A DNA stretch of 11,178 nt from a virus (lineage: Duplodnaviria > Heunggongvirae > Uroviricota > Caudoviricetes). Under the pieces are notes generated by a model. That model worked only from the letters and a program-made list of their open reading frames with translations. It did not search any database and was not told the DNA's origin. The DNA lies in the IMG/VR virus record IMGVR_UViG_2671180710_000027, one strand, 5' to 3'. Below are positions 1 through 11,178 of the stretch, in pieces. The translations under genes and the position numbers were made by a program. Each line of letters begins with the position of its first letter. Within the stretch, counting starts at the first letter, position 1.

Positions 1-603
1 CTATTTCTTCTCTGTAATTTTTACACTGTTTTCCAACTGCTTGATGCTGACCTGCGGGGTCGGCAACTCCTCAGGCATGGTTCCGCCAAGTTCCTGAATG
101 GTTTGCCTCACCTTGCTACCCACGTCAAAGTGTGTGGTATTAGCTTGCTGTGCTGCCTCAACCAATTGTTTGTTATGTTCTTTCAACTCATTTCTCAGAA
201 ACAGACGCTTTTCGTCTTCACGAAGTTGCTTAAATGCTTCATCGTCAGCAAGCTCCTGCCGTCGGGTCTGGATAGCAAAATAAGTCTGCCCTGCCGCAAT
301 GACCGGTTTCGCGGGGTCGCCGTTTTGTACTACCAGGTAACAGGCATAGCGGGAGAGTACGATGTCTTTTAATGCTCTTTTGGCATTTGAGCCAATTTTG
401 ACCATATCGAGGATCTCCTCGAAATGGTCATCAATTGTGTGACCACTGTTCTCACAGGCCTCTTTGGCGCGCGTTAATACAGGTATAAAGTGACGATACA
501 CTGAATAACCCAGTAGTTTCCCAAGTTGTCTTGCTGACCATTGTTCTGCTCCGTTTGCATTAATCAGTTTTATCTCTTCAAAAGGTTGATGATGTTCGTT
601 CAT
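1..603 (-). CDS. dinD: DNA damage-inducible protein D (DinD)
   Basis: ORF-track protein (MNEHHQPFEEIKLINANGAEQW...) recognised from memory as DinD. Complete, with TAG stop at 1-3. Preferred start is the ATG at 601-603 (GGAG about 8 nt upstream) rather than the in-frame ATG at 613-615. A canonical LexA box lies about 45 bp upstream. Confidence 0.8.
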   Translation of the reverse strand: MNEHHQPFEEIKLINANGAEQWSARQLGKLLGYSVYRHFIPVLTRAKEACENSGHTIDDHFEEILDMVKIGSNAKRALKDIVLSRYACYLVVQNGDPAKPVIAAGQTYFAIQTRRQELADDEAFKQLREDEKRLFLRNELKEHNKQLVEAAQQANTTHFDVGSKVRQTIQELGGTMPEELPTPQVSIKQLENSVKITEKK

Positions 604-646
604 TGCCCACTCCATGTGATATCGATTGCAAAGAAAGTAAATCTGT

Positions 647-789: not shown

Positions 790-1016
790 GTGAAGGCTGA
801 AAAGTAAGAATTAGTGTTACGAGTTACTCAATTGAATCTGAATGTTTAGTATGTGCGTTAATTGCTTTTATTATGCGGTTCTTTGGGTTGGGTTAATTTG
901 TATATGTACACGCGTATGTACACATTTTTCGTGAGTGCTCAATAAAACGGGATACGAAAGCCGTTTTTATGTGGCTTTAAAGTGGGTTTAGAAATGGCGC
1001 AATTGTGCTTTTGGCG

Positions 1017-1098
1017 TGCTGGTGGCGGGGGTCGAACCCGCATACATGATCAGCCTGTACAGGCTGGCACCGACTCTACCCGTTGAGCGTACACCAGC
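1017..1098 (-). other. tRNA-like sequence (degenerate; probable attachment-site relic)
   Basis: Minus-strand read gives a perfect 7-bp acceptor stem (GCTGGTG / CACCAGC), a perfect T-arm (GCGGG-TTCGACC-CCCGC) and a D-arm resembling GCTCAGTTGGTAGAGC. The anticodon region is a 5-bp stem with a 6-nt loop inside the palindrome AGCCTGTACAGGCT, spacers are oversized, and no CCA is encoded. Confidence 0.5.
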
Positions 1099-1120
1099 AA
1101 AAAAGCGATGAGGTTGTTGG

Positions 1121-1206
1121 CTGCTGGTGGTGGGGGTCGAACCCACATAAACATATGGCCCGTTAGGGTTTATGCCGCTTTACCGATTAAGAGTACACCA
1201 TACAGC
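1121..1206 (-). other. Second, more degenerate tRNA-like sequence
   Basis: Shares the 24-bp 3' terminus with the first copy (plus strand 1017-1040 versus 1122-1145, one mismatch) and a T-arm GTGGG-TTCGACC-CCCAC. The 5' acceptor strand is disrupted (GCTG-TAT-GGTG) and the middle is AT-rich and diverged. Confidence 0.4.
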
Positions 1207-1280
1207 CAGGCAAAATAGTAATTATGCGTTATGCGCGGGTAAAGTCCGTTTTGTCTGGTAGCACCAGATGAACGGGTATC

Positions 1281-1350
1281 ATTATTTCACCTGATTTCAC
1301 GTGATTTCGCTTAATTTCACAAAAATCACCGTCTTTCACCTTCTTTCACA
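1281..1350. repeat. Seven direct repeats of (A/T)TTTCAC phased at exactly 10 bp
   Basis: TTTCAC-like hexamers start at 1285, 1295, 1305, 1315, 1325, 1334 and 1344. The array lies about 80 bp inside the tRNA-like relics. Confidence 0.7.
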
Positions 1351-1480
1351 AAAAACAAATTATCATTAAAGCGCCTTTCGCTCTCTGATGCGTTTTGGTG
1401 TTTTGTGGTGTCTGTGATGCCCTGAAAGGGGATTTTTGCGATAGCGGCGCAAATATAACGGTTGCTGCTGGTATCTGTGG

Positions 1481-1888
1481 TTAGTCTTGCGTGATTTTAT
1501 TGGCGTGCTTCTTTCTAAGCCGCCGAATGATATCGTAAATATGGGTCTCGGATATCGCGTACTCTTTACGTAATGCCTGCAATTTTTCGCCGTTATCCCA
1601 CCTGTAGTAAATCTCGTATTCGCGCAATGCTGCGAAAAGTGATCTGCCTGTTGGAAGGTAAAGACTCCGCCCACCAGCATAGAAGGCGATTGCAGCAACA
1701 ACCCGCTTTGCGATTCTGAAAGCGTCTGCCTCCTCCATGCCATTACGGGTAAGTTCTGCCACTGAATGCGACACGATATCAGCAAGCGAATCACACCATG
1801 CATCACCTGGTTTATCTCCGCCGTCTATGTCATTCATGAATTTAAGCCGCTCGATGTCTTTTGGTACGTGATGGGTTTGCTCGTTCAT
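1481..1888 (-). CDS. Mor-family transcriptional activator
   Basis: 135-aa ORF. The C-terminal half (YLPTGRSLFAALREYEIYYRWDNGEKLQALRKEYAISETHIYDIIRRLRK) parallels phage Mu Mor (YIPRGQALDSLIRDLRIWNDFNGRNVSELTTRYGVTFNTVYKAIRRMRR, recalled). AAGAGG lies 7 nt upstream of the ATG at 1886-1888. Confidence 0.8.
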   Translation of the reverse strand: MNEQTHHVPKDIERLKFMNDIDGGDKPGDAWCDSLADIVSHSVAELTRNGMEEADAFRIAKRVVAAIAFYAGGRSLYLPTGRSLFAALREYEIYYRWDNGEKLQALRKEYAISETHIYDIIRRLRKKHANKITQD

Positions 1889-1977
1889 CCGGTAGCCTCT
1901 TGTGTTGGTGTATCTGGTCCTACCAGTTTAATTTAACGTCGCGATAAAACGATATACACGCACACATATCAGAAAGG

Positions 1978-2274
1978 CTAACCGACTGTTCCGGCTCTGT
2001 GCTTATTTCTGGTAGCTACGCCAGATTTTTTACATCTCCCTCCTATCCCCATTTCTGCGTAAGTGCGGTTTACTGCTTTCCTCAGGTCTGCGTAGTTCTC
2101 CTCTGGCGGCTCCGGTGGCCTCTGTGCCTTCCCGTAACACTCTGCCCTGCGCATTGCCACCCGTTCGCGTTCCCTGTCAGTCTCCACCAGCATCATCACT
2201 TCGGCCCATCGCGCCGCCGCTCTCCGGTAAAAGCCTTTCGACTCCAGTTCTTCCGCTATGCGGTCATGTACCAT
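1978..2274 (-). CDS. PerC-family transcriptional regulator (PerC/Pch-like)
   Basis: 98-aa ORF beginning MVHDRIAEELESKGFYRRAAARWAEVMMLV, recalled as the PerC family N-terminal signature. GAGGGGG lies 6 nt upstream of the ATG at 2272-2274. Confidence 0.65.
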   Translation of the reverse strand: MVHDRIAEELESKGFYRRAAARWAEVMMLVETDRERERVAMRRAECYGKAQRPPEPPEENYADLRKAVNRTYAEMGIGGRCKKSGVATRNKHRAGTVG

Positions 2275-2285
2275 CGTTCACCCCC

Positions 2286-2540
2286 TCAGAACGGAATATT
2301 GTCACCGCAGGGGTCATAACTTCCCGCTGGTGGCTGATTGCTCTGTGTGCCTGTGGTACTGCGTCTGCTCCCGCCTGGACGCGTCGCCCGTGCACTGATT
2401 ATGCTGTCCGCTATGACCTGATAACCCTGCCGCGTTTCCCCGTTCTGTCCGGTCCACTGGCTTACCTGCATCGTGCCGGATACGCTGATTACGTTGCCTT
2501 TCTCATATCCTGCCAGTCGGTCGGCCTGTCTGAAAAACAC
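2286..2540 (-). pseudogene. 5'-truncated single-stranded DNA-binding protein (ssb remnant retaining C-terminal tail)
   Basis: The 84-aa ORF aligns to the C-terminal half of SSB (SQWTGQNGETRQGYQV against RKWTDQSGQDRYTTEV) and ends ...GDNIPF, like the SSB DDDIPF tip. The frame opens with GTG at 2538-2540 directly after an in-frame stop at 2547-2549. No SSB N-terminal OB-fold sequence was found in any frame upstream. Confidence 0.6.
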
Positions 2541-2865
2541 GCTTTCTTAAACAATGCCTAAAAGCCGATTTTATGGTGCTTTGAAACGGTTTTTAAAATG
2601 GCGCTCGTGGTGTACTCTCTGGCATTCAATGGCGCTCTGTGATGTGGCTGGTGGTATGTGGCCGCCATGCATAATGGGGCTGATTTTGTTCATGGCCCGG
2701 CAATGGGTGAGCATTTTTTACCATATTCAGGGTAACAATGGGCGAAAAAGTTCATTTCTGGCATGGCCTGAAATTCCATGCAGCCCGCGCCGCGTGTGCT
2801 CTTGCCGGGGAAAACGTCGCGGAATAATGACCGCACCCCACCTTATGGCGGTGCAGTCCCACGAA

Positions 2866-2934
2866 ATCCCGGTTATTTCCGTTTATTCCCGGATTAATCC
2901 CGCCTTTTCCCGCATTCTCCCGGCTGTTCCCGGA
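2866..2934. repeat. Seven direct repeats of TCCCG(G/C) phased at 10-11 bp
   Basis: TCCCG-type units at 2867, 2877 (degenerate TTCCG), 2887, 2898, 2908, 2918 and 2928, in a non-coding gap. Confidence 0.7.
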
Positions 2935-2956
2935 ATTAATCGCCGGGGTGTGGTGG

Positions 2957-3247
2957 TTATCTGGTGTGGTCGTAGTTCTGCCGTAGTCGTTCACCCTCAG
3001 CGCAATGACGCGGTTTTTTAACGCCGCTGGTAGCACAATGCGGGCAGGTCATGACGTGGCTGATATACGCATCACGGGCAGCCAGCCACGCCGCAGACGG
3101 GGCGCACATATCCGCCAGCGTCTGGCCGTTGCTGGTGGTGTTGTCTTCCGGCCATGTTTCGGACTGGTGCGCTTCCTGTAAATCCGGTGCAGGTAATGCC
3201 CGGATAAACTCACACAATGCATCCGGCAGGCTGAATAACTTATGCAT
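2957..3247 (-). CDS. Hypothetical small protein with Cys/His cluster (possible mosaic ORF)
   Basis: 96-aa ORF with ATG at 3245-3247 and no clear ribosome-binding site. Contains CPHC...HC. It carries an in-frame 34-bp segment (3101-3134) nearly identical to part of the helicase gene (4481-4514). Confidence 0.35.
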   Translation of the reverse strand: MHKLFSLPDALCEFIRALPAPDLQEAHQSETWPEDNTTSNGQTLADMCAPSAAWLAARDAYISHVMTCPHCATSGVKKPRHCAEGERLRQNYDHTR

Positions 3248-3670
3248 AAATCTGATGTTCTGAATCGCTGAAAACGTGCGTTTTATGGTGTTTTTTCGTG
3301 ATTTCTGCGTGTTCTGATGTGCTCATTTCGCTGTATCCCTTGTGTGGCGCGGGCTGCGCGTGTGTTTCGGTGTTCTTTTTTGCCGCCAGAAAACGGTAAT
3401 CAGGCATATAAACACGGCTGTAAGCCGCGCCGCGTCTGGCTTCGCGTGATTTTGTGCGCTAAAAAGTGCATTTTTGCCCTTAAAAAGCGTTATTCGTGAT
3501 TCACTGGTAAATGCTCCACATGCCGCGCCATTGCTGGGCTTTTCGCTATTCTGTGTGGTTTTGCTGTTTAACCCGTTTTGCACACTGAAATTGCCTTGCA
3601 TCCAGCGCCACGTAAGGGATTTCCGGGTTTTTATGGTGCGTTTTTTGCCGTGCGTAATATTGTGCAAGTT

Positions 3671-3913
3671 GGTGGGACTGGTGGGAACTGTGGGAACCGC
3701 CTAGAACCACGCGGCTTTCAGTGGTTCCCACCAGTTCCCACGGTGGCTTTTTGTGGGAACCGTGGCGGTTATTTTTTGTTCTCTGTGGTTCCCACCAGTT
3801 CCCGCAGAGTTCCCACTCAAAAACGAACAATAATCATACTGGTGATTTTATTATTTACTGATTTATATATGTTTTATTTTTACGGTTCCCACAGTTCCCA
3901 CCAGTCCCACCAC
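3671..3913. repeat. Iteron cluster with AT-rich core: candidate origin of replication (P4 ori/crr-like)
   Basis: About 11 copies of the octamer GTGGGAAC / GTTCCCAC in both orientations (3671-3698, 3724-3741, 3752-3761, 3789-3816, 3885-3910). They flank an AT-rich stretch at 3817-3884 and lie immediately downstream of the helicase gene. Confidence 0.65.
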
Positions 3914-3946
3914 TTTTTCAGTTTTTAAAAACGCAATTTTTGTTAA

Positions 3947-5785
3947 TTATTCATCAATTGCGAATAACAATGCATTCTGGTCGATGGCGTAAACGCGGTG
4001 TTTTTCCCCGTTAACGGAAACGCGTTTTGTGTATCGGCGTTTCCCGTCCGTGTCGCGGTCAACAATCGCGCCAGCATCATCAAGACTGGCCGCTATGCGT
4101 TTCAGGTCGTAGCCGCTGGCCGCCTCACATAGTGCTTCCGGTAAAAACCAGTAAACCCGGTCGCCGTTGCTCCCCGGTCGCCACCATCCGGCGCGGTTGC
4201 TTACTGGTTCGCTGTATGTGTTGCCCCCTTCAAAGCGTGAGGCATGGCGGGCGATAAACCCGGCGACGGCCCGGAGTATTTTCACGTCCTCCGATTGCCC
4301 CCGGCCACGATAGTCCGACCACGCAGCAAACATCGCTTTCACCGCCTCCAGTGCTTCGCCCTGTTTCCACGGCAGAATCCCGGCAGTTATCGCCATTTCA
4401 CCGGCCAGTGCGCACAGTGTGAAACGCGCGGCGGCGCGCGCCTCCTGCCCGGTGCTTACGGGGAATTGTTCGCGCAGTATGGCGTACATATCCGCCAGCG
4501 TCTGGCCGTTGCTGTCGGTGCTGGTGGTGTCACTTTCATTGCGGGAAATCAGCCAGCGCACAAACTCCGGCCCGGCGTGGCCGTAATGGGTGGCCGCATT
4601 ACCGCGCAGCGTTTCGGCAAATTTCCGGCCTGCTCCACGGCGTTCTGTGTCGTTGTCGGGGTTGTGGGGTAGTGCCATTCCGTGGAGGCAGTCAAACGCC
4701 CCGTAAAGCCGCTGTGCCGGAATATCCAGTAACCGCATTTCCTGCCCGGCCTTGATGCGCTGACCACCGCTTTCCATGTGTTTACCCACGGTCATTTCCC
4801 CTGTGGAAATAATCATGGTGCGCCATGTGTTGACCGGGCGGGCCATGCCGGACACCTTGCCACGCTGGCGGCCTGTTCCGTTGCCAAGCTGATAAATCAG
4901 CCCGCCAATATCTCTGGCCGGGGCTTCGCCAATTTCATCCAGTATCAGCGCGGTATCGTTCCGCATGGTCGCCAGCCCTTCAAGCCCGGTGCTGGTGGCG
5001 TTCCAGTTGCGTTTAAAGTTGCGGGGTTCTCCCCATACGCTACAGGCCACCAGCGCCCCCACGCTTTTCCCGCTGGAACTGTCGCCCATGAAATGAAATC
5101 CGCCGCTGTCCACATCAAGCAGCCACAGCAACGGCCCGGCGAGTGATGCACACACTGCCAGCATGGCTACCGGGTTTCCCCGGCATAATGCGGCCACGTT
5201 GTCGCGCCAGCCCTCCGGCGTTCCTGCGGTGGCGTACTCCTGTGAGCCTGCTTCTGTTGACTGAAACACCACATCACCATCACCGATAACCCCGCCCGGC
5301 ATGACAAACAGGGTCGGGGAGTGCCACCCGGTGGCCGTAGCCGCGAGCGCCCGTCGTTTTGGTGCTGACTCCATGATGTATTCGGTCAGTGCCTGCCGTT
5401 GTTTGTAGGGAATGGTAACGCCCATGCGCAGCAGCTCCTGTCGGAGTTCTCCGCCGTCTCCGGCGAGCATTTCCATCGGTGCGGCCCATTCCCGCCACTG
5501 GCCTGACGGCGTGAGAAAACGGAGTAATCGCCCGTAGTTTTCGTCTTTGCTGTCGCTGGTCATGGCGATAACCTCCAGCGGGGAACAGATAAACGTGTCC
5601 GTGTTGGTTGAGTCGCGCACGCCGTGCCAGTAAAGGCCGGGTTTCAGTATCTGGCCGCCGTCCACCTGTACATGCTGCGAATAAGTGGCGTAGCCCGGAC
5701 GTGCCGGGCTGACTTTGGGGTGTTTCTTGCGTGGTGGTTTTCGCTTCCCGGATGTGACCGGGGTTTTAGTGGTTGTCCGGGTCAT
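3947..5785 (-). CDS. Replicative helicase, SF3/P-loop NTPase (P4 alpha C-terminal-like, DUF927-type)
   Basis: 612-aa ORF with Walker A GDSSSGKS and Walker B LILDEIG. Its ATG at 5783-5785 overlaps the primase 3' end by 20 bp. Confidence 0.85.
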   Translation of the reverse strand: MTRTTTKTPVTSGKRKPPRKKHPKVSPARPGYATYSQHVQVDGGQILKPGLYWHGVRDSTNTDTFICSPLEVIAMTSDSKDENYGRLLRFLTPSGQWREWAAPMEMLAGDGGELRQELLRMGVTIPYKQRQALTEYIMESAPKRRALAATATGWHSPTLFVMPGGVIGDGDVVFQSTEAGSQEYATAGTPEGWRDNVAALCRGNPVAMLAVCASLAGPLLWLLDVDSGGFHFMGDSSSGKSVGALVACSVWGEPRNFKRNWNATSTGLEGLATMRNDTALILDEIGEAPARDIGGLIYQLGNGTGRQRGKVSGMARPVNTWRTMIISTGEMTVGKHMESGGQRIKAGQEMRLLDIPAQRLYGAFDCLHGMALPHNPDNDTERRGAGRKFAETLRGNAATHYGHAGPEFVRWLISRNESDTTSTDSNGQTLADMYAILREQFPVSTGQEARAAARFTLCALAGEMAITAGILPWKQGEALEAVKAMFAAWSDYRGRGQSEDVKILRAVAGFIARHASRFEGGNTYSEPVSNRAGWWRPGSNGDRVYWFLPEALCEAASGYDLKRIAASLDDAGAIVDRDTDGKRRYTKRVSVNGEKHRVYAIDQNALLFAIDE

Positions 5786-6809
5786 GCTCCATTTCCCATA
5801 GCATCAAATCGTTAAAGTCGGAAAGGTCTGGTGATGCACCGGGCGGCCATTCCGGGAATGTGACGTAACATCCGGCCAGCAATGCGGCTTCGTTGGCTGC
5901 TCTGGAACCGGGGTTGCCTTTTGATGCCCGGTCATCATCCCCGGCGATAACGAGAGATATGCGCGAGCCGTATCGTTCACGCAGCGCCATAGCCACATGT
6001 TTAAGGTTTCCCGCATTCATGGCACACACCACGGCCATGACGTTCCAGTACTGGAGAAGGGCGGCCCCGGTGGCCCACCCCTCACACACGTAAACGTCAT
6101 GTTCCGGCGCTTCCGGGGCCATCAGGTCAAAGCTCCCCATAACATGGAAAGCCCCCTGCACCTGACCATCACGGAGAAACATTTTTCGACCGTCCGGGCT
6201 GATAATCTGCACGTTCACCACTTCGCCGCATACGTTGTACAGCGGGACAAGCAAATCATTACCCGACTGATACAGATTGCCGGGCTGTAGCCGTTTTTTC
6301 ATGAGATAGGGATGAGAAGGGGTTGCCACCTCCGCCCGGCCAAGCAACTCAAAGGCCCGGCAGGCGGTCAGTTTCTGGCGCTGGTGGCGTTGTTGCTGCT
6401 CCCGCTGGCGGAGTCTGCCCGCCTCCTGTTCTGCGGCCTGTACCCGCACCCGTTGCGCCTCCCGTTGTTCGCGGGTCATTACATCAGGTTTGCCCAGTGC
6501 GGGCAGGCACAGCCCCAGCCTGTCCGCCACAATACGGGCGGCATCAGTCTGACGCACATTCCACAAATAAGCCCCCAGCGCCACAAGGTCGCCGCCGCTG
6601 TCCCCGGTGGCGAAGTCGTGCCAGCATCCGTCCACCAGCGAGACGAAAAAACTGCCCGCGTGACGGTCTGCACGTGTGGGGTTACGGCACACCCATTCAG
6701 TGGCCTGCCGTTTACCTTCGGGCAGCCATTCAGGAACAAGGATTTCCGCATGTTGTGCCGCCACTGCGGCAACGCTGCGGATTGCGTTAATCGTGGCTAT
6801 GTCACGCAT
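5766..6809 (-). CDS. TOPRIM-domain DNA primase (P4 alpha N-terminal-like)
   Basis: TOPRIM motifs VYVCEGWATG and LVIAGDDD. Preferred start is the ATG at 6807-6809 (GGGAGGG upstream, MRDIATINAIR...), not the TTG at 6885-6887 used by the ORF track. Confidence 0.85.
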   Translation of the reverse strand: MRDIATINAIRSVAAVAAQHAEILVPEWLPEGKRQATEWVCRNPTRADRHAGSFFVSLVDGCWHDFATGDSGGDLVALGAYLWNVRQTDAARIVADRLGLCLPALGKPDVMTREQREAQRVRVQAAEQEAGRLRQREQQQRHQRQKLTACRAFELLGRAEVATPSHPYLMKKRLQPGNLYQSGNDLLVPLYNVCGEVVNVQIISPDGRKMFLRDGQVQGAFHVMGSFDLMAPEAPEHDVYVCEGWATGAALLQYWNVMAVVCAMNAGNLKHVAMALRERYGSRISLVIAGDDDRASKGNPGSRAANEAALLAGCYVTFPEWPPGASPDLSDFNDLMLWEMEHDPDNH

Positions 6810-7116
6810 GTTGCCCGCCCTCCCTGATTTCCCCGGTGCGGCAGCGCCAGTTATACGCCTCCACAACCTCACTGAATCCGGCCACAAGTTCAGCCGTAAC
6901 AGCGATGGAATCGCCCAGGCTGCGTAGTTCGCCCATGCTGGGGTCGAGATTGTCGCCCATGCCGGAAAGCAGGCGGCCTGTGCTAATCAGCCCTTCAAGC
7001 AGTTTGCGGGCGCAGTAATCCGCATCATCAAACAGGGCGCGGGCTTCCTGTGCGTCTGCGTTTTTGATGGCCGCAACCAGTAGTTCAGGTATCCGGGTGT
7101 TATACATATCACACAT
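6802..7116 (-). CDS. Hypothetical acidic protein (104 aa)
   Basis: ATG at 7114-7116 overlaps the upstream stop in an ATGTGTGA junction, and its own stop overlaps the primase start in ATGCGTGA. No motif recognised. Confidence 0.55.
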   Translation of the reverse strand: MCDMYNTRIPELLVAAIKNADAQEARALFDDADYCARKLLEGLISTGRLLSGMGDNLDPSMGELRSLGDSIAVTAELVAGFSEVVEAYNWRCRTGEIREGGQHA

Positions 7117-7405
7117 GGCTTACCTCCCCGGCCTGCTGGTCGTAACACTCCATCAGTTCGGCCATACAGCCAATGAGGGCAGGGGCTGTCTGTAGAAATC
7201 CGGCTAATTGGCAGATCTCGTCTCTGGAATAGGTGATGGGGTTTTCGCGTAACTGGCTTCCCTCCAGTGCCTTACCAACAAAGGCAATCCCCGCCAGTAA
7301 ATTCACTCTGTGCCAGTCGGCATCAACGCGCAGAATCCAGTGGCTTTCTTCGTCCGGCATACTGCTCATGGCGGCTTTCATTGACTCACGCAGACAATCA
7401 CGCAT
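7109..7405 (-). CDS. Hypothetical acidic protein (98 aa from ATG 7403-7405)
   Basis: The ORF-track start at 7435 is a TTG. The ATG at 7403-7405 sits in an ATGCGTGA overlap with the upstream stop and has GGGGG 6 nt upstream. Confidence 0.5.
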   Translation of the reverse strand: MRDCLRESMKAAMSSMPDEESHWILRVDADWHRVNLLAGIAFVGKALEGSQLRENPITYSRDEICQLAGFLQTAPALIGCMAELMECYDQQAGEVSHV

Positions 7406-7862
7406 GGCGCGCCCCCTGACGAATACGGGCGACAAAAATCATATGCGCGTGCGGTAGCTGCGCGCGTGCTTCGCGTTCTGTTGCCGCCGTGACGGTAAAG
7501 AGCGAGGTTTGTTTTTCCTGGCACTGCATAAAGCGCCAGACAAAGTAAGGGCGTGCGAATACAGCCATGTGAAAGGCTCCTATGTTTGAGGTAAGGAGTC
7601 TCGCTACTACGCTGCTAAACGGGGTGGCGAGACGTAACGGGGTTAGCAGACTGGCAACATAGAAACCAGCGAGCGCAAAGGCTCCCCCGTCACGCCCCGC
7701 CATAATGCGGGTATGGGTAGGTTTACGGACACAAAAAAACCGCATATCGGAATGTAAGCGGCTGTCCGCTATGTTATTCAGGCTGCTAAACCCGGTCACC
7801 ATGTGGGTGACTCCGGCATCATACAGCCCGAAAGAAGAGGCGATCAACATGTTTTTAAGCAT
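7398..7862 (-). CDS. Ash/Icd-like family protein (long form 154 aa; possible short form 7398-7568)
   Basis: C-terminal 56 aa (MAVFARPYFVWRFMQ...HMIFVARIRQGARHA) is paralogous to the Icd-like protein upstream. The long start at 7860-7862 overlaps the upstream stop (ATGCTTAA). An internal ATG at 7566-7568 has GGAG 8 nt upstream, so the true start is ambiguous. Confidence 0.5.
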   Translation of the reverse strand: MLKNMLIASSFGLYDAGVTHMVTGFSSLNNIADSRLHSDMRFFCVRKPTHTRIMAGRDGGAFALAGFYVASLLTPLRLATPFSSVVARLLTSNIGAFHMAVFARPYFVWRFMQCQEKQTSLFTVTAATEREARAQLPHAHMIFVARIRQGARHA

Positions 7863-8052
7863 GGCTCACCCCCTGAGCCGGAACGCGGCCAGCAAAAAGC
7901 AACACAAAATCACGCGCCAGCATACGGCGGGCGGTTGTTTCGTCGGGTGCGTTGACGGATTCGCGGTGTGGGCGGTCGTTCAGATCGGAACGGCGAACGG
8001 CCAGAAAGTGAAAGGTAAATTCAGGGTGTAACGGGGTTGGGGTCGTAGCCAT
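7855..8052 (-). CDS. Host cell division inhibitor Icd-like small protein (65 aa)
   Basis: MATTPTPLHPEFTFHFLAVRRSD...ARRMLARDFVLLFAGRVP matches the recalled Icd-like pattern. The ATG at 8050-8052 has AGGAGG 8 nt upstream. The 201-aa ORF-track version adds a Pro/Gly/Arg-rich N-terminal extension that I consider non-coding. Confidence 0.6.
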   Translation of the reverse strand: MATTPTPLHPEFTFHFLAVRRSDLNDRPHRESVNAPDETTARRMLARDFVLLFAGRVPAQGVSHA

Positions 8053-8481
8053 TCTGGCAGCCTCCTTTTGCAAATTTAAGGAGTCACCGCCTGAGTTTCC
8101 ACGCTCATAAGGGGCGGTGACGCTGGCGGGGGTGGAAATACCGGCGCAAAAGGAAACCGGCCAGCCTTTCGGCTGCCCCACCAGCGCCACCATAGATACA
8201 GTGCGGGCCTTGCCGCTGTTCATGGTTGCGCGATGGCACGACACAAAAAAAGACGCTGGGCGCGTCTGTGTCGCCTTTTGCTCATTAAACGGGTTTCCAC
8301 GCCCGGCTGGTGGATTTACACCAGCCGGGGAAATATAACGCCCACCAGCGATGGCAGGCAAGCAATATTTGCGGTTGCCGCCCATTCTGTGGGGCGTGTG
8401 GTGGTTGTTTTGGGCGTGAGAACGCCCCGGCCCTGTTGCGGGCCTTTCTGGCATTTTCATGATTAAAATTCTCTGACGGGG

Positions 8482-8688
8482 TTAATTGCGCGTGCTGGTC
8501 GTGCCTTTGCGGTCAGCGAGCCACTGGCGGATAGCGGAAACATCAAAGCGGCTTACGCCATCGCCCAGCTTATCCGGGCTGGGGAATTTACCTTTTTTAA
8601 CCCAGTTCCATAGCGTCGATTCGCTAATCTGAAAATGGTTTATCACCTGTGCCGGGCGCATATAGCCGGATTTGGGTAAGGTATCCAT
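8482..8688 (-). CDS. alpA: AlpA-family phage regulatory / excisionase-like HTH protein
   Basis: 68-aa ORF with an HTH (MRPAQVINHFQISESTLWNWVKKGKFPSP) followed by RFDVSAIRQWL, typical of AlpA/Xis-type proteins. AGAGG lies 9 nt upstream. Confidence 0.8.
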   Translation of the reverse strand: MDTLPKSGYMRPAQVINHFQISESTLWNWVKKGKFPSPDKLGDGVSRFDVSAIRQWLADRKGTTSTRN

Positions 8689-9811: not shown

Positions 9812-9906
9812 GGTTTACGTTACCTTTGACGCTACCTTAAAAATAAACCGGGGCAGGCGGTAAGGTTTCCCGCTTTTCGCGCCGTCGCGCTATCCCCGGT
9901 ATGTTT

Positions 9907-11178
9907 TTATTTTGCAATCGCTTTTGTGATGGGGGTTACGTTGTATTCATCCCCCTGTTCCAGAGCCACCAGCAGGTCGGCCCATAACTCCAGAGCGTGG
10001 CGGCGTTCATTGAAATACTGATGGCGGTTATAGATACCCTCAACGCCTTTAATTCGGTGGTTCAGGCAGCGTTCCGCCACTACAGGGTCTACCCCAAGCG
10101 CGGCAAGGTGAGTTCTGGCTGTGCGTCGGAAATCGTGAACGGTAAAACCCGGCACACCAGGCATTTCCCGGCGAACCTTAGCCAGCGCAACGGGCAGGGT
10201 GCTTTCCTGTATGTGTGGAATCATGCGCTGTTGCATTTTGCGGGCCGGAAGCACCCAGCGGCTACCGCCTGAAATGCTGTGTAATTCGCGCAACCATGCC
10301 ACCGCTGGTGGCGGTAGTGGGATATCAATGGCATCCCCGTTTTTAGCCCGTTCGGCAGGGAGTCGCCATACAGCACTATCTAAATCAAATTCATCCCACT
10401 GTGCGGCGCACAACTCCATTTTTCGGCAGCAAAGGCAAAGTATCAGTTTCATGGTGAGTTCATTCTCACGGCTGAATCCTTTAGCTGTGCGCATGGCCTG
10501 AAAAAAATGAATGAGTTCATCACGGGTTAGCCATCGGTCGCGGCTTTTTTCAGCCCCACCAGCATCTGATAACTCAAAAGCAGCGGCGGGGTTTGTTTCC
10601 AGTGCGTGGCGTTTGATGGCGTAGTCGAATATCCGTTTAGTCCATCGCAAAACATCATTGGCGACTGTTGGCGCTCCGCGGTCAATAATGCGCTGTAGCA
10701 TTGCGTCAATATGGCGCGGTTTAACGTCTTCGACTTTCAGGCTGCCAATCTGAGGGTTGATATCTTTGTCTATGCGGCGGCGGAGAATATCGGGATGTTT
10801 CCAGCGGGGTAGTATTTGCCGTTCGTAGTATTCGGCTGCCAGTTCTGACACGCGAAGGGCGTTTTTTTCTTCCTCAATCCGTGCCAGTGCCGCCGCTTTT
10901 CGGGCCTGCTTTTCTCCGGCCACGTCATGGCCCAGCGCAACACGGGCGGCCAGTTCTTTAACGGTGGCGCGGGCTTTACTTAGTGACAGGTCGGAATATG
11001 AGCCGATGTGCATAGCACGTTGTTTCCCGGCCATCCGGTAACGATAGCGCCAGAATGGGGCGTTATATTTTTCAGGGAAGCACAAATACAGGCCGTTACC
11101 ATCGGCGCGGGCATCAAAGCGTTCCCCGGCCTTTATCCACGCCTTTATCTGAATATCCGTTAACTTCGCCTTTGTCAT
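9907..11178 (-). CDS. int: Tyrosine site-specific integrase, P4 family
   Basis: 423-aa ORF whose N-terminus (MTKAKLTDIQIKAWIKAGERF...GNGLYLCF) resembles the P4-type arm-binding domain. The C-terminus carries the catalytic motifs HDFRRT and LNH...GIYNRHQY. The start codon is at the window edge. Confidence 0.9.
   Translation of the reverse strand: MTKAKLTDIQIKAWIKAGERFDARADGNGLYLCFPEKYNAPFWRYRYRMAGKQRAMHIGSYSDLSLSKARATVKELAARVALGHDVAGEKQARKAAALARIEEEKNALRVSELAAEYYERQILPRWKHPDILRRRIDKDINPQIGSLKVEDVKPRHIDAMLQRIIDRGAPTVANDVLRWTKRIFDYAIKRHALETNPAAAFELSDAGGAEKSRDRWLTRDELIHFFQAMRTAKGFSRENELTMKLILCLCCRKMELCAAQWDEFDLDSAVWRLPAERAKNGDAIDIPLPPPAVAWLRELHSISGGSRWVLPARKMQQRMIPHIQESTLPVALAKVRREMPGVPGFTVHDFRRTARTHLAALGVDPVVAERCLNHRIKGVEGIYNRHQYFNERRHALELWADLLVALEQGDEYNVTPITKAIAK

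Follow-up and report, generated by a model that had tools for sequence, protein, structure and literature searches.

What might two small regulator genes do at the far end of an integrative element in which no capsid or packaging gene is recognized? The question is raised by an 11,178-nucleotide (nt) stretch of Caudoviricetes DNA, IMG/VR record IMGVR_UViG_2671180710_000027, whose full length we call the window. A sequence-only reading had placed a PerC-like and a Mor-like activator at positions 1481-2274, distal to the replication module, had treated them as a pair, and had likened them to the activators with which satellites such as P4 hijack the late genes of a helper phage. Both family assignments were borne out by Pfam matches above the cut-offs (PF06069 and PF08765), and the two genes are the last ones, after the replication module, of an integrative satellite-like element. 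This element, ~10.5 kb between its junctions, is a phage satellite of the phage-inducible chromosomal island (PICI) type in Escherichia coli, inserted at the 3' end of yicC. The likeness to P4 gained support for the Mor-like gene only, through its late-activator relatives, a box shared with a phage end and its co-occurrence with that phage; the PerC-like gene showed no such link. The best-supported reading, to which we assign a probability of about 0.5, is that the Mor-like gene and the DNA behind it form a P4-like helper-exploitation module aimed at Mu-like phages of the Sp18 type.

The Mor-like protein is related to late activators of Mu-like phages

The match of the Mor-like protein to PF08765 spans profile positions 3-102 of 107, and in PHROGs the protein falls within phrog_532, "late transcriptional activator" (E 9e-28). 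Among solved structures, the Mu late activator C (9l0x, E 1.5e-13, residues 28-131) was a better match than Mu Mor (1rr7, E 6.6e-7); BLASTP identities were 31% to Mu C and 30% to Mu Mor. The GG..Y.P.G core is kept, with G72, G73, Y77, P79 and G81 invariant in a six-sequence alignment, and the C terminus carries a helix-turn-helix (HTH). Family, core and HTH are thus those of Mu C and Mor, from which the protein differs by its 30-31% identity, by being encoded on a satellite and by having no late genes downstream. Proteins of the Mor/C family activate sigma-70 RNA polymerase at promoters without a -35 element, and their genes typically stand in transposable phages, upstream of middle or late operons; here the gene is the last of the satellite and is followed by non-coding repeats and tRNA-like elements only.

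The closest phage homologue (48% amino acid [aa] identity) comes from a Mu-like phage that sits as an insertion in Shiga toxin (Stx) phages, the Sp18 type of O157:H7 Sakai, and is the only Mor/C-family gene of that phage. Flanked by a GemA-like gene and, directly downstream, by the endolysin gene, this C-like gene occupies the position of C in Mu.

Between diverged copies of the satellite gene, the ratio of nonsynonymous to synonymous substitution rates (dN/dS) was 0.11-0.23; it ranged from 0.04 to 0.84 across all six pairs, the extremes being near-identical pairs with few substitutions. The gene is under purifying selection. Its product forms a separate 50%-identity cluster among 455 family clusters, and its nearest relative outside that cluster (P0005, 49% identity) comes from a satellite of another Escherichia. 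A cluster at 96% identity was present on 506 contigs of a large collection, and an IMG/VR search for relatives returned one weak match. In the data reached, this lineage is essentially confined to Escherichia.

The DNA behind the gene resembles the left end and a tRNA-like element of the same phages

Downstream of the Mor-like gene stands an array of seven GTGAAA-type units (coordinates of all features are given in Table 1). The array is near-invariant, with two single-base differences, among the window and three satellites that we label L002, L009 and L019. The array and the first 100 nt of an Sp18-type phage are each other's best match: among 3988 phage windows, the left end ranked first against the array, and among 1108 window segments, the array region ranked first against the phage end. 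The alignment holds 36 ungapped identities in 51 positions, a score that none of 3000 dinucleotide shuffles reached.

A 21-nt box, TTTTTGTGAAAGAAGGTGAAA / TTTTWGTGAAAGRMGGTGWAA, is unique in the window, in the 40-kb phage and in the resident prophage, and is also present in the satellite of the other Escherichia. Exact matches in IMG/VR numbered 24, of which 22 lay at nt 35-55 of Sp18-family left ends, 1.2-1.4 kb upstream of a MuA-like gene. Around the box in these phages, the flanking L1-like terminal sequence varies and the transposases are 75-94% identical. The packaging (pac) site of Mu reportedly lies at about nt 32-58 of its left end, between L1 and L2. From this resemblance we propose that the array and box may be a mimic of a pac site. 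Directly after the array (1263-1275, minus strand), ATAATGATACCCG resembles the core TTTGATACC that is repeated at both ends of Sp18-type phages, where it may be a transposase-binding site; this lone 7-mer likeness is not significant by itself.

Two tRNA-like elements end the satellite. ARAGORN found no tRNA at 1017-1098, where the acceptor, D and T arms are canonical and the anticodon arm is palindromic and non-canonical. In the Sp18-type phage, the intergenic space that separates the F-like from the G-like head gene contains a tRNA-like element, labeled tRNA-OTHER by PGAP in the resident prophage, and positions 1022-1094 match it at 86% nt identity. Over nine copies, pairing in the acceptor, D and T stems stands at 94% and five pairs are changed on both sides, values that were reached in 0 of 500 shuffles. 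The "anticodon" arms of this family are variable and non-canonical, one being a perfect 16-nt palindrome. In satellites the elements stand in tandem at the end (positions 10210-10395 of L029; three copies in L019 and L002); in the phage there is a single one, on the strand opposite the late genes (5001-5071 of L024; 20411-20490 of L055). A similar "tRNA-OTHER" is found on plasmid NZ_CP074995.1.

The module co-occurs with Sp18-type prophages

The C/lys region of Sp18-type phages was present in 231 of 5426 complete E. coli genomes (about 4%). The Sp18-type C gene was found in 12 of the 14 genomes that carry the module and in 193 of the 5412 others (Fisher p 5e-16, without correction for relatedness). 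The toprim backbone was present in 32 genomes: all seven with the module had the phage C gene and none of the 25 without it did, a split with a hand-calculated probability of 1/C(32,7), ~3e-7. As five of these seven carriers are near-identical, they represent about three independent lineages at the yicC site; further carriers come from the tRNA-Ile and mdtP sites. In the genome that matches the window, an Sp18-type prophage is present that looks complete, extending from the repressor to Mom, and its left end bears the box. Sequenced strains with both satellite and prophage include CFIAFB20190167, JNEC-KY174 and 2012EL-2448.

The distal segment is portable and composite

The segment carrying both regulators covers positions ~1012-2562 of the window, or 1.55 kb. 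Two sister elements at the yicC site (O111:H2 strain 12A and Z0117EC0133) are 97% identical to the window over 2561-7419 and over the integrase and lack 1001-2560 altogether. An imperfect ~44-bp direct repeat lies on both sides of the segment. The recombination that attached it to the backbone cut short the gene for a single-stranded DNA-binding protein (SSB), whose remaining fragment marks the scar at the proximal edge.

The same segment, at 94-100% nt identity, stands at the far end of ~8-kb satellites with different integrases and replicases, integrated at mdtP (L009-L019, L026) or at tRNA-Ile beside mug (L025). In the equivalent position these satellites have an intact 136-aa SSB, together with an intact 90-aa PerC. 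The tail that starts with the Mor-like gene occurs in E. coli on three backbones, each with its own integration site (yicC, mdtP or tRNA-Ile). Homology runs from the SSB gene through the Mor-like gene and the repeat array to two or three tRNA-like elements and ends exactly at the 3' end of the last of them. Carriers are mostly Shiga toxin-producing E. coli (STEC) or bovine isolates. The mdtP-type satellites have a different origin (ori) region, with AAGTGAG-type iterons between a RepA-like helicase gene and the SSB gene (8740-9190 of L009).

In another Escherichia (L028-L030), the yicC site is occupied by an orthologous satellite that has the Mor-like gene without SSB or PerC. Its backbone is 72-83% identical to the window, and the gmk-spoT region of its host is 91% identical to that of E. 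coli. The Mor-like gene (49% identical) directly follows a homologue of the 96-aa open reading frame (ORF) and precedes phased repeats, the box and a pair of tRNA-like elements. PerC and Mor do not form an obligate pair, and the proposal that they work as one is unsupported: this satellite has Mor without PerC, and capsid-forming PICIs have PerC without Mor. Since each occurs without the other, the conserved unit is the Mor-like gene with its repeats and tRNA-like elements, PerC being separate. The distal segment is made of two independent pieces: a truncated SSB gene with PerC, and the Mor tail, i.e., the activator gene, the GTGAAA array and the tRNA-like elements. Two arguments for a functional Mor tail are the purifying selection on its gene and its maintenance on different backbones and in different species.

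Two other origins of the module were considered and rejected. Had a second element entered the attachment (att) site in tandem, an att and arm-site set of its own would be expected; the inner junction is without one, showing the 44-bp imperfect repeat and the truncated SSB only. A simple remnant of a Mu-like prophage is contradicted by the order of the three shared pieces, which differs from that in the phage, and by their widely differing identities (48% aa, 71% nt and 86% nt).

PerC is a PICI regulator without a link to the Sp18-type phage

Relative to the intact 90-aa copies (L009, L019, L006, L007), the PerC gene of the window has lost one A from a run of seven. Because of this 1-nt deletion, the last 7 aa (IWRSYQK) of the conserved end ...KKIWRSYQK are replaced by 15 out-of-frame residues. 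The frame with the C-terminal IWRxY motif of the PchE-like subgroup is broken in the window and intact in sister copies; the 80-residue Pfam domain is unaffected. RefSeq/PGAP labels the gene a frameshifted pseudogene. The SSB fragment separates PerC and Mor from the replication genes.

An SSB-PerC pair at ~84% nt identity occurs in capsid-forming PICIs, between the replicase and a capsid-to-terminase operon (L006, L007). One of these is the phoQ/roxA island of O157:H7, where the operon comes after PerC; this is the island known as OI-51/EcCIEDL933, with PchE as its PerC homologue (PMC3378721; 10.1101/2022.09.08.507074). PerC variants in E. coli PICIs have been described before (PMC6092414, PMC11773190, PMC3378721). 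PerC homologues are nearly absent from true phage genomes (2 of 50,697 records), and PerC therefore gives no lead to a helper. It is a known PICI regulator of the PchE type, damaged in the window copy and without a link to the Sp18-type phage. On viral contig L034 (IMG/VR 2617271340_000001), an SSB-PerC pair and an Sp18-family phage occur together, the pair ~9.4 kb upstream of the phage's left end, so a PerC-bearing satellite and a Mu-like prophage are neighbors in one genome there.

A candidate late-promoter element of the phage is absent from the window

In the Mu-like phage L027, a 22-nt box, CTGAWATYCCGCAAARCCYGCC, occurs at exactly two sites (~11,346-11,367 and ~19,274-19,295), upstream of the endolysin gene lys and of the gene for an I-like protease. 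It is a candidate C-dependent late-promoter element. The sequence-only reading had suggested searching late promoters of the helper for shared motifs; CTGAWATYCCGCAAARCCYGCC was not found in the window, so the satellite gives no sign of a promoter responsive to helper C. A dyad of the Mu C type, TTAT-N6-ATAA, gave seven one-mismatch matches against 3.2 expected, none at a meaningful position, and was not used.

The backbone is that of a Gram-negative PICI

Two E. coli strains, CFIAFB20190167 and JNEC-KY174, have between dinD and yicC a copy of the window that is 99.97% identical, with one 2-bp indel. All scanned genes of the element are on the minus strand, in the order integrase, int-alpA RNA, a 317-aa ORF of unknown function, AlpA-type HTH protein, two Ash/Icd-like ORFs, two small unknown ORFs, toprim primase, DUF927 helicase, iterons, 96-aa ORF, SSB fragment, PerC and Mor (Table 1). 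An arm-type repeat, TATGTACACGNNTATGTACAC, lies near both ends of the element.

Table 1. Features of the satellite and its left boundary, in order along the window
Feature	Position	Strand	Evidence and remarks
Left junction	820-929		Resemblance to the empty site of K-12 stops at 832 (GTTAYTC), adjoining the yicC 3' end
Arm-type repeat TATGTACACGCGTATGTACAC	903-929		Second copy to the right of int, outside the window
Imperfect ~44-bp direct repeat, copy a	957-1000		One copy in sister elements L003 and L004
tRNA-like element	1017-1098	-	PGAP "tRNA-Tyr"; Rfam tRNA, 35 bits
Second tRNA-like element	1120-1203	-	PGAP "tRNA-OTHER" in sister copies; sister-copy alignment; covariation
Seven GTGAAA-type units, 10-bp phase	1285-1354	-	Tandem Repeats Finder (TRF), period 10; five exact GTGAAA units clustered
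21-nt box TTTTTGTGAAAGAAGGTGAAA / TTTTWGTGAAAGRMGGTGWAA	1334-1354	-	First two array units plus T-run; corresponds to left-end nt 35-55 in Sp18-type Mu-like phages
Mor/C-family transcription activator gene	1481-1888	-	135 aa, intact; Pfam PF08765, E 3.7e-23, 82 bits (cut-off 24.9)
PerC/Pch-family gene, PchE-like	1978-2274	-	98-aa ORF; Pfam PF06069, E 2.8e-35, 120.9 bits (cut-off 22.6)
SSB gene, C-terminal fragment	2286-2540	-	Pfam SSB profile positions 55-101 only; PGAP "missing N-terminus"
Imperfect ~44-bp direct repeat, copy b	2563-2606		Junction of backbone with truncated SSB
Second phased array, ~8 units SCGGGAW, period 10-11	2860-2947	-	TRF; just downstream of the 96-aa ORF
Hypothetical 96-aa protein	2957-3247	-	Kept across the satellite backbone; homologue directly precedes Mor in the other-Escherichia satellite L029
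Iterons GTTCCCACCA / TGGTGGGAAC	3670-3912		TRF; directly 3' of the helicase gene
DUF927 helicase / replication initiator	3947-5785	-	Pfam PF06048, E 7e-83; phrog_1139
Toprim-domain primase	5766-6887	-	Pfam Toprim_3; PGAP
Two Ash/Icd-like ORFs	7398-8460	-	P1/P7-type immunity-like cassette, duplicated; Rfam; Pfam Phage_ASH; PGAP
C4 antisense RNAs	7620-7707, 8110-8197	-	Embedded in the Ash/Icd-like ORFs; Rfam, 82 and 74 bits
isrK	8246-8325	-	Rfam
AlpA-type HTH regulator	8482-8688	-	Pfam Phage_AlpA / HTH_17
int-alpA RNA	9835-9900	-	Rfam RF02996
Tyrosine integrase	9907-11178	-	Pfam

The element has the traits of Gram-negative PICIs: a terminal int, alpA, primase and replicase genes in one co-directional operon with ori iterons behind it, a size within 8-15 kb, no structural or lysis gene among the scanned ORFs, and its own att site, with related islands at the yicC 3' end in several genomes and an empty site in K-12. 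The iterons are the probable ori of the satellite; the organization of PICI ori regions has been described (PMC6092414). Scans of the window ORFs against Pfam, NCBIfam and PHROG found no capsid, terminase, tail or lysis gene, in line with the sequence-only reading, and no match to the psu, delta, sid, epsilon or P4-alpha families. The operon of capsid, protease, portal, connector, HNH, terS and terL genes that marks capsid-forming PICIs is absent from the window, as are the core genes and P2-type cos of P4-like satellites: no match to the P2/P4 cos was found in the window within three mismatches, and a search for a lambda-type cosN gave chance-level matches inside genes only.

The SCGGGAW array belongs to the backbone rather than to the Mor module and is therefore also present in sister elements without Mor; it could be another protein-binding or packaging site. 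A similar run of CGGGA type comes after Mor in L029. A 43-nt stretch of the DUF927 helicase gene (4483-4525) recurs at 91% identity in the 96-aa ORF (3103-3145), and the two proteins have SNGQTLADM in common, so part of the 96-aa ORF comes from the helicase gene. The Ash/Icd, C4 and isrK cassette is of the c4-icd-ant control type of P1/P7, here within a PICI-type satellite; sister elements have a single copy of it or an AntA/AntB gene in its place. Next to the element, dinD (1-615, minus strand) has lost 213 bp internally, in frame, compared with K-12 and JNEC-KY203, with the junction near 142-151 and a product of ~200 aa instead of 274; other island-bearing strains have an internal stop in dinD.

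Discussion

If the Mor tail is a helper-exploitation module, its operation can be modeled by analogy with P4, whose Delta activator and cos site act on P2. After induction, the satellite operon would express the C-like activator, which would turn on or re-tune the C-dependent late operons (lysis, head and tail) of a resident or infecting Sp18-type phage. The satellite would replicate by its own primase and helicase, and its concatemer would offer a copy of the phage left-end box to the phage terminase, so that satellite DNA might be packaged headful into phage particles. In the alignment, the counterpart of the left-to-right direction of Mu leads from the array toward the att site and on around the circle. 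The tRNA-like RNAs, shared with the phage, may also have some role. The broader proposal that a minimalist PICI-type lineage in E. coli and its relatives parasitizes Sp18-type phages with a C-like transactivator, an amplified pac mimic and helper-shared tRNA-like RNAs, all on a backbone-hopping cassette, is more tentative, and we would put it somewhat short of an even chance.

Several observations weigh against this reading. The module is rare, with 14 carriers among the 5426 complete genomes, and two of them, JNEC-KY179 and STEC17-183, have the module and lack the Sp18-type C gene; the co-occurrence statistics are uncorrected for clonal relatedness, and five of the seven carriers at the yicC site are near-identical. 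The satellite protein is just 48% identical to the phage activator. The assignment of CTGAWATYCCGCAAARCCYGCC as a promoter element comes from two sites only, and this box is absent from the window. The 21-nt box, at nt 35-55, falls at the reported position of Mu pac, and a pac function at Sp18-family left ends is assumed from Mu. In L029 the array units are GTGGAAT instead of GTGAAAT, and array and box may therefore represent distinct sites. Finally, the frameshift in PerC and the truncation of SSB suggest that the window copy may be partly decayed.

The strongest competitor, which we regard as unlikely, is that both regulators are accessory cargo that reprograms host functions, such as the enterocyte-effacement locus (LEE) and its type III secretion system, motility or metabolism, outside the life cycle of the satellite. 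Members of the PerC/Pch family regulate LEE1; in Citrobacter, the PICI PerC homologue EcCIMP1_025 represses LEE1 (PMC11773190); and RgdR, of the capsid-forming PICI OI-51, acts on type III secretion and motility (PMC3378721). PICI accessory genes are typically found at the 3' end (PMC6092414), and the bias of the carriers toward STEC and bovine isolates would also suit cargo of this kind. Proteins of the PchE type, however, are reported to have no LEE1 effect, at least in the account that PMC11773190 gives of Porter 2005. Nor would host regulation predict a Mor-like gene accompanied by phage-end-like non-coding DNA or the tracking of the prophage within one backbone. Mor is also found without PerC.

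Somewhat less probable again is interference, in which the C-like protein would poison or out-compete the activator of the helper, through inactive heterodimers or promoter occlusion, and the array would titrate a pac-binding protein. A model for it is the reduction of helper yield by PtiA and PtiM of Staphylococcus aureus pathogenicity islands, which act on LtrC. Interference draws on exactly the same phage links as helper exploitation; Mor/C proteins are dimeric, as established for Mu Mor and C (structures 1rr7 and 9l0x), and seven tandem units, against two in the phage, suit titration. Pure repression would nevertheless be self-defeating, because a satellite without structural genes needs the late proteins of its helper.

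An internal role is improbable. The Mor-like protein would bind the array and drive the tRNA-like RNAs or regulate its own gene, the likeness to the phage being due to common ancestry. The array does lie 50-115 bp upstream of a weak sigma-70-like promoter (TTTACC-17-TACTAT, picked by eye) that faces the tRNA-like elements, and the shift of its units from GTGAAAT to GTGGAAT parallels the 51% divergence of Mor between the two satellite lineages. This promoter falls below the scan threshold, however, known Mor/C sites are dyad-symmetric and not direct repeats, and the co-occurrence with the prophage would be left unexplained. That the distal segment is mere debris of recombination between satellites is very improbable: the truncated SSB, the frameshifted PerC, the imperfect 44-bp repeat scar and the sister elements that manage without the segment would fit, but Mor is intact and under purifying selection and the tail is kept on three backbones and in two species.

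Helper exploitation by the Mor tail can be set beside known systems. Like P4 with its helper P2, the element is a small integrative satellite without structural genes that encodes a diverged homologue of a helper late activator (Delta versus Ogr in P4, C-like versus the Sp18 C-like protein here) and carries a copy of the helper packaging signal, a P2-type cos in P4 and a putative one here. Unlike P4, the window has no homologues of Psu, Sid, Delta, Epsilon or P4-alpha; its activator is of the Mor/C family and not an Ogr/Delta zinc-finger protein, and the proposed helper is a transposable myovirus with headful packaging. With EcCICFT073 and EcCIEDL933 (OI-51), the element shares the int-alpA-(icd/ash)-primase/helicase-ori layout, the size and a dedicated att site (PMC6092414, PMC3378721, 10.1101/2022.09.08.507074), and with EcCIEDL933 also the SSB-PerC(PchE) pair after the replication module. 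It differs from Gram-negative and capsid-forming PICIs in that the window is without a cos of lambda or P2 type and without rpp, terS or capsid genes, and in that a Mor/C gene, a phage-end-like array and tRNA-like elements stand where the packaging module would be.

Use of a Mu-family myovirus as a PICI helper has a precedent in PmCI172 of Pasteurella multocida, whose helper is a Mu-like phage (PMC6092414); unlike the window element, PmCI172 has a capsid protein homologue and makes small capsids. The minimalist islands of Vibrio (PICMIs), as PMC10803314 presents them, are likewise very small, have no capsid-remodeling genes and would be packaged as concatemers in full-size helper capsids, as is proposed here; they differ in host clade, helper type and gene content. 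PerC in PICIs and a Mu-like helper for a Pasteurella PICI (PMC6092414) are already known, and the literature searched contained nothing on Mor/C-family genes in satellites, Mu-end-like arrays or E. coli satellites of Mu-like phages.

Satellites have a hand in phage ecology and in the movement of virulence and defense genes, and the known helper relationships in E. coli are with P2-like and lambdoid or siphoviral phages. If the Mor tail does serve to exploit Sp18-type phages, molecular piracy in E. coli would extend to transposable phages, and the theft of a late activator together with a packaging signal, as in P4, would have a convergent second case built from a different protein family. Sp18-family phages, common in STEC, would also gain a candidate pac signal, and helper-exploitation functions would be seen to travel between satellite backbones as a small cassette.

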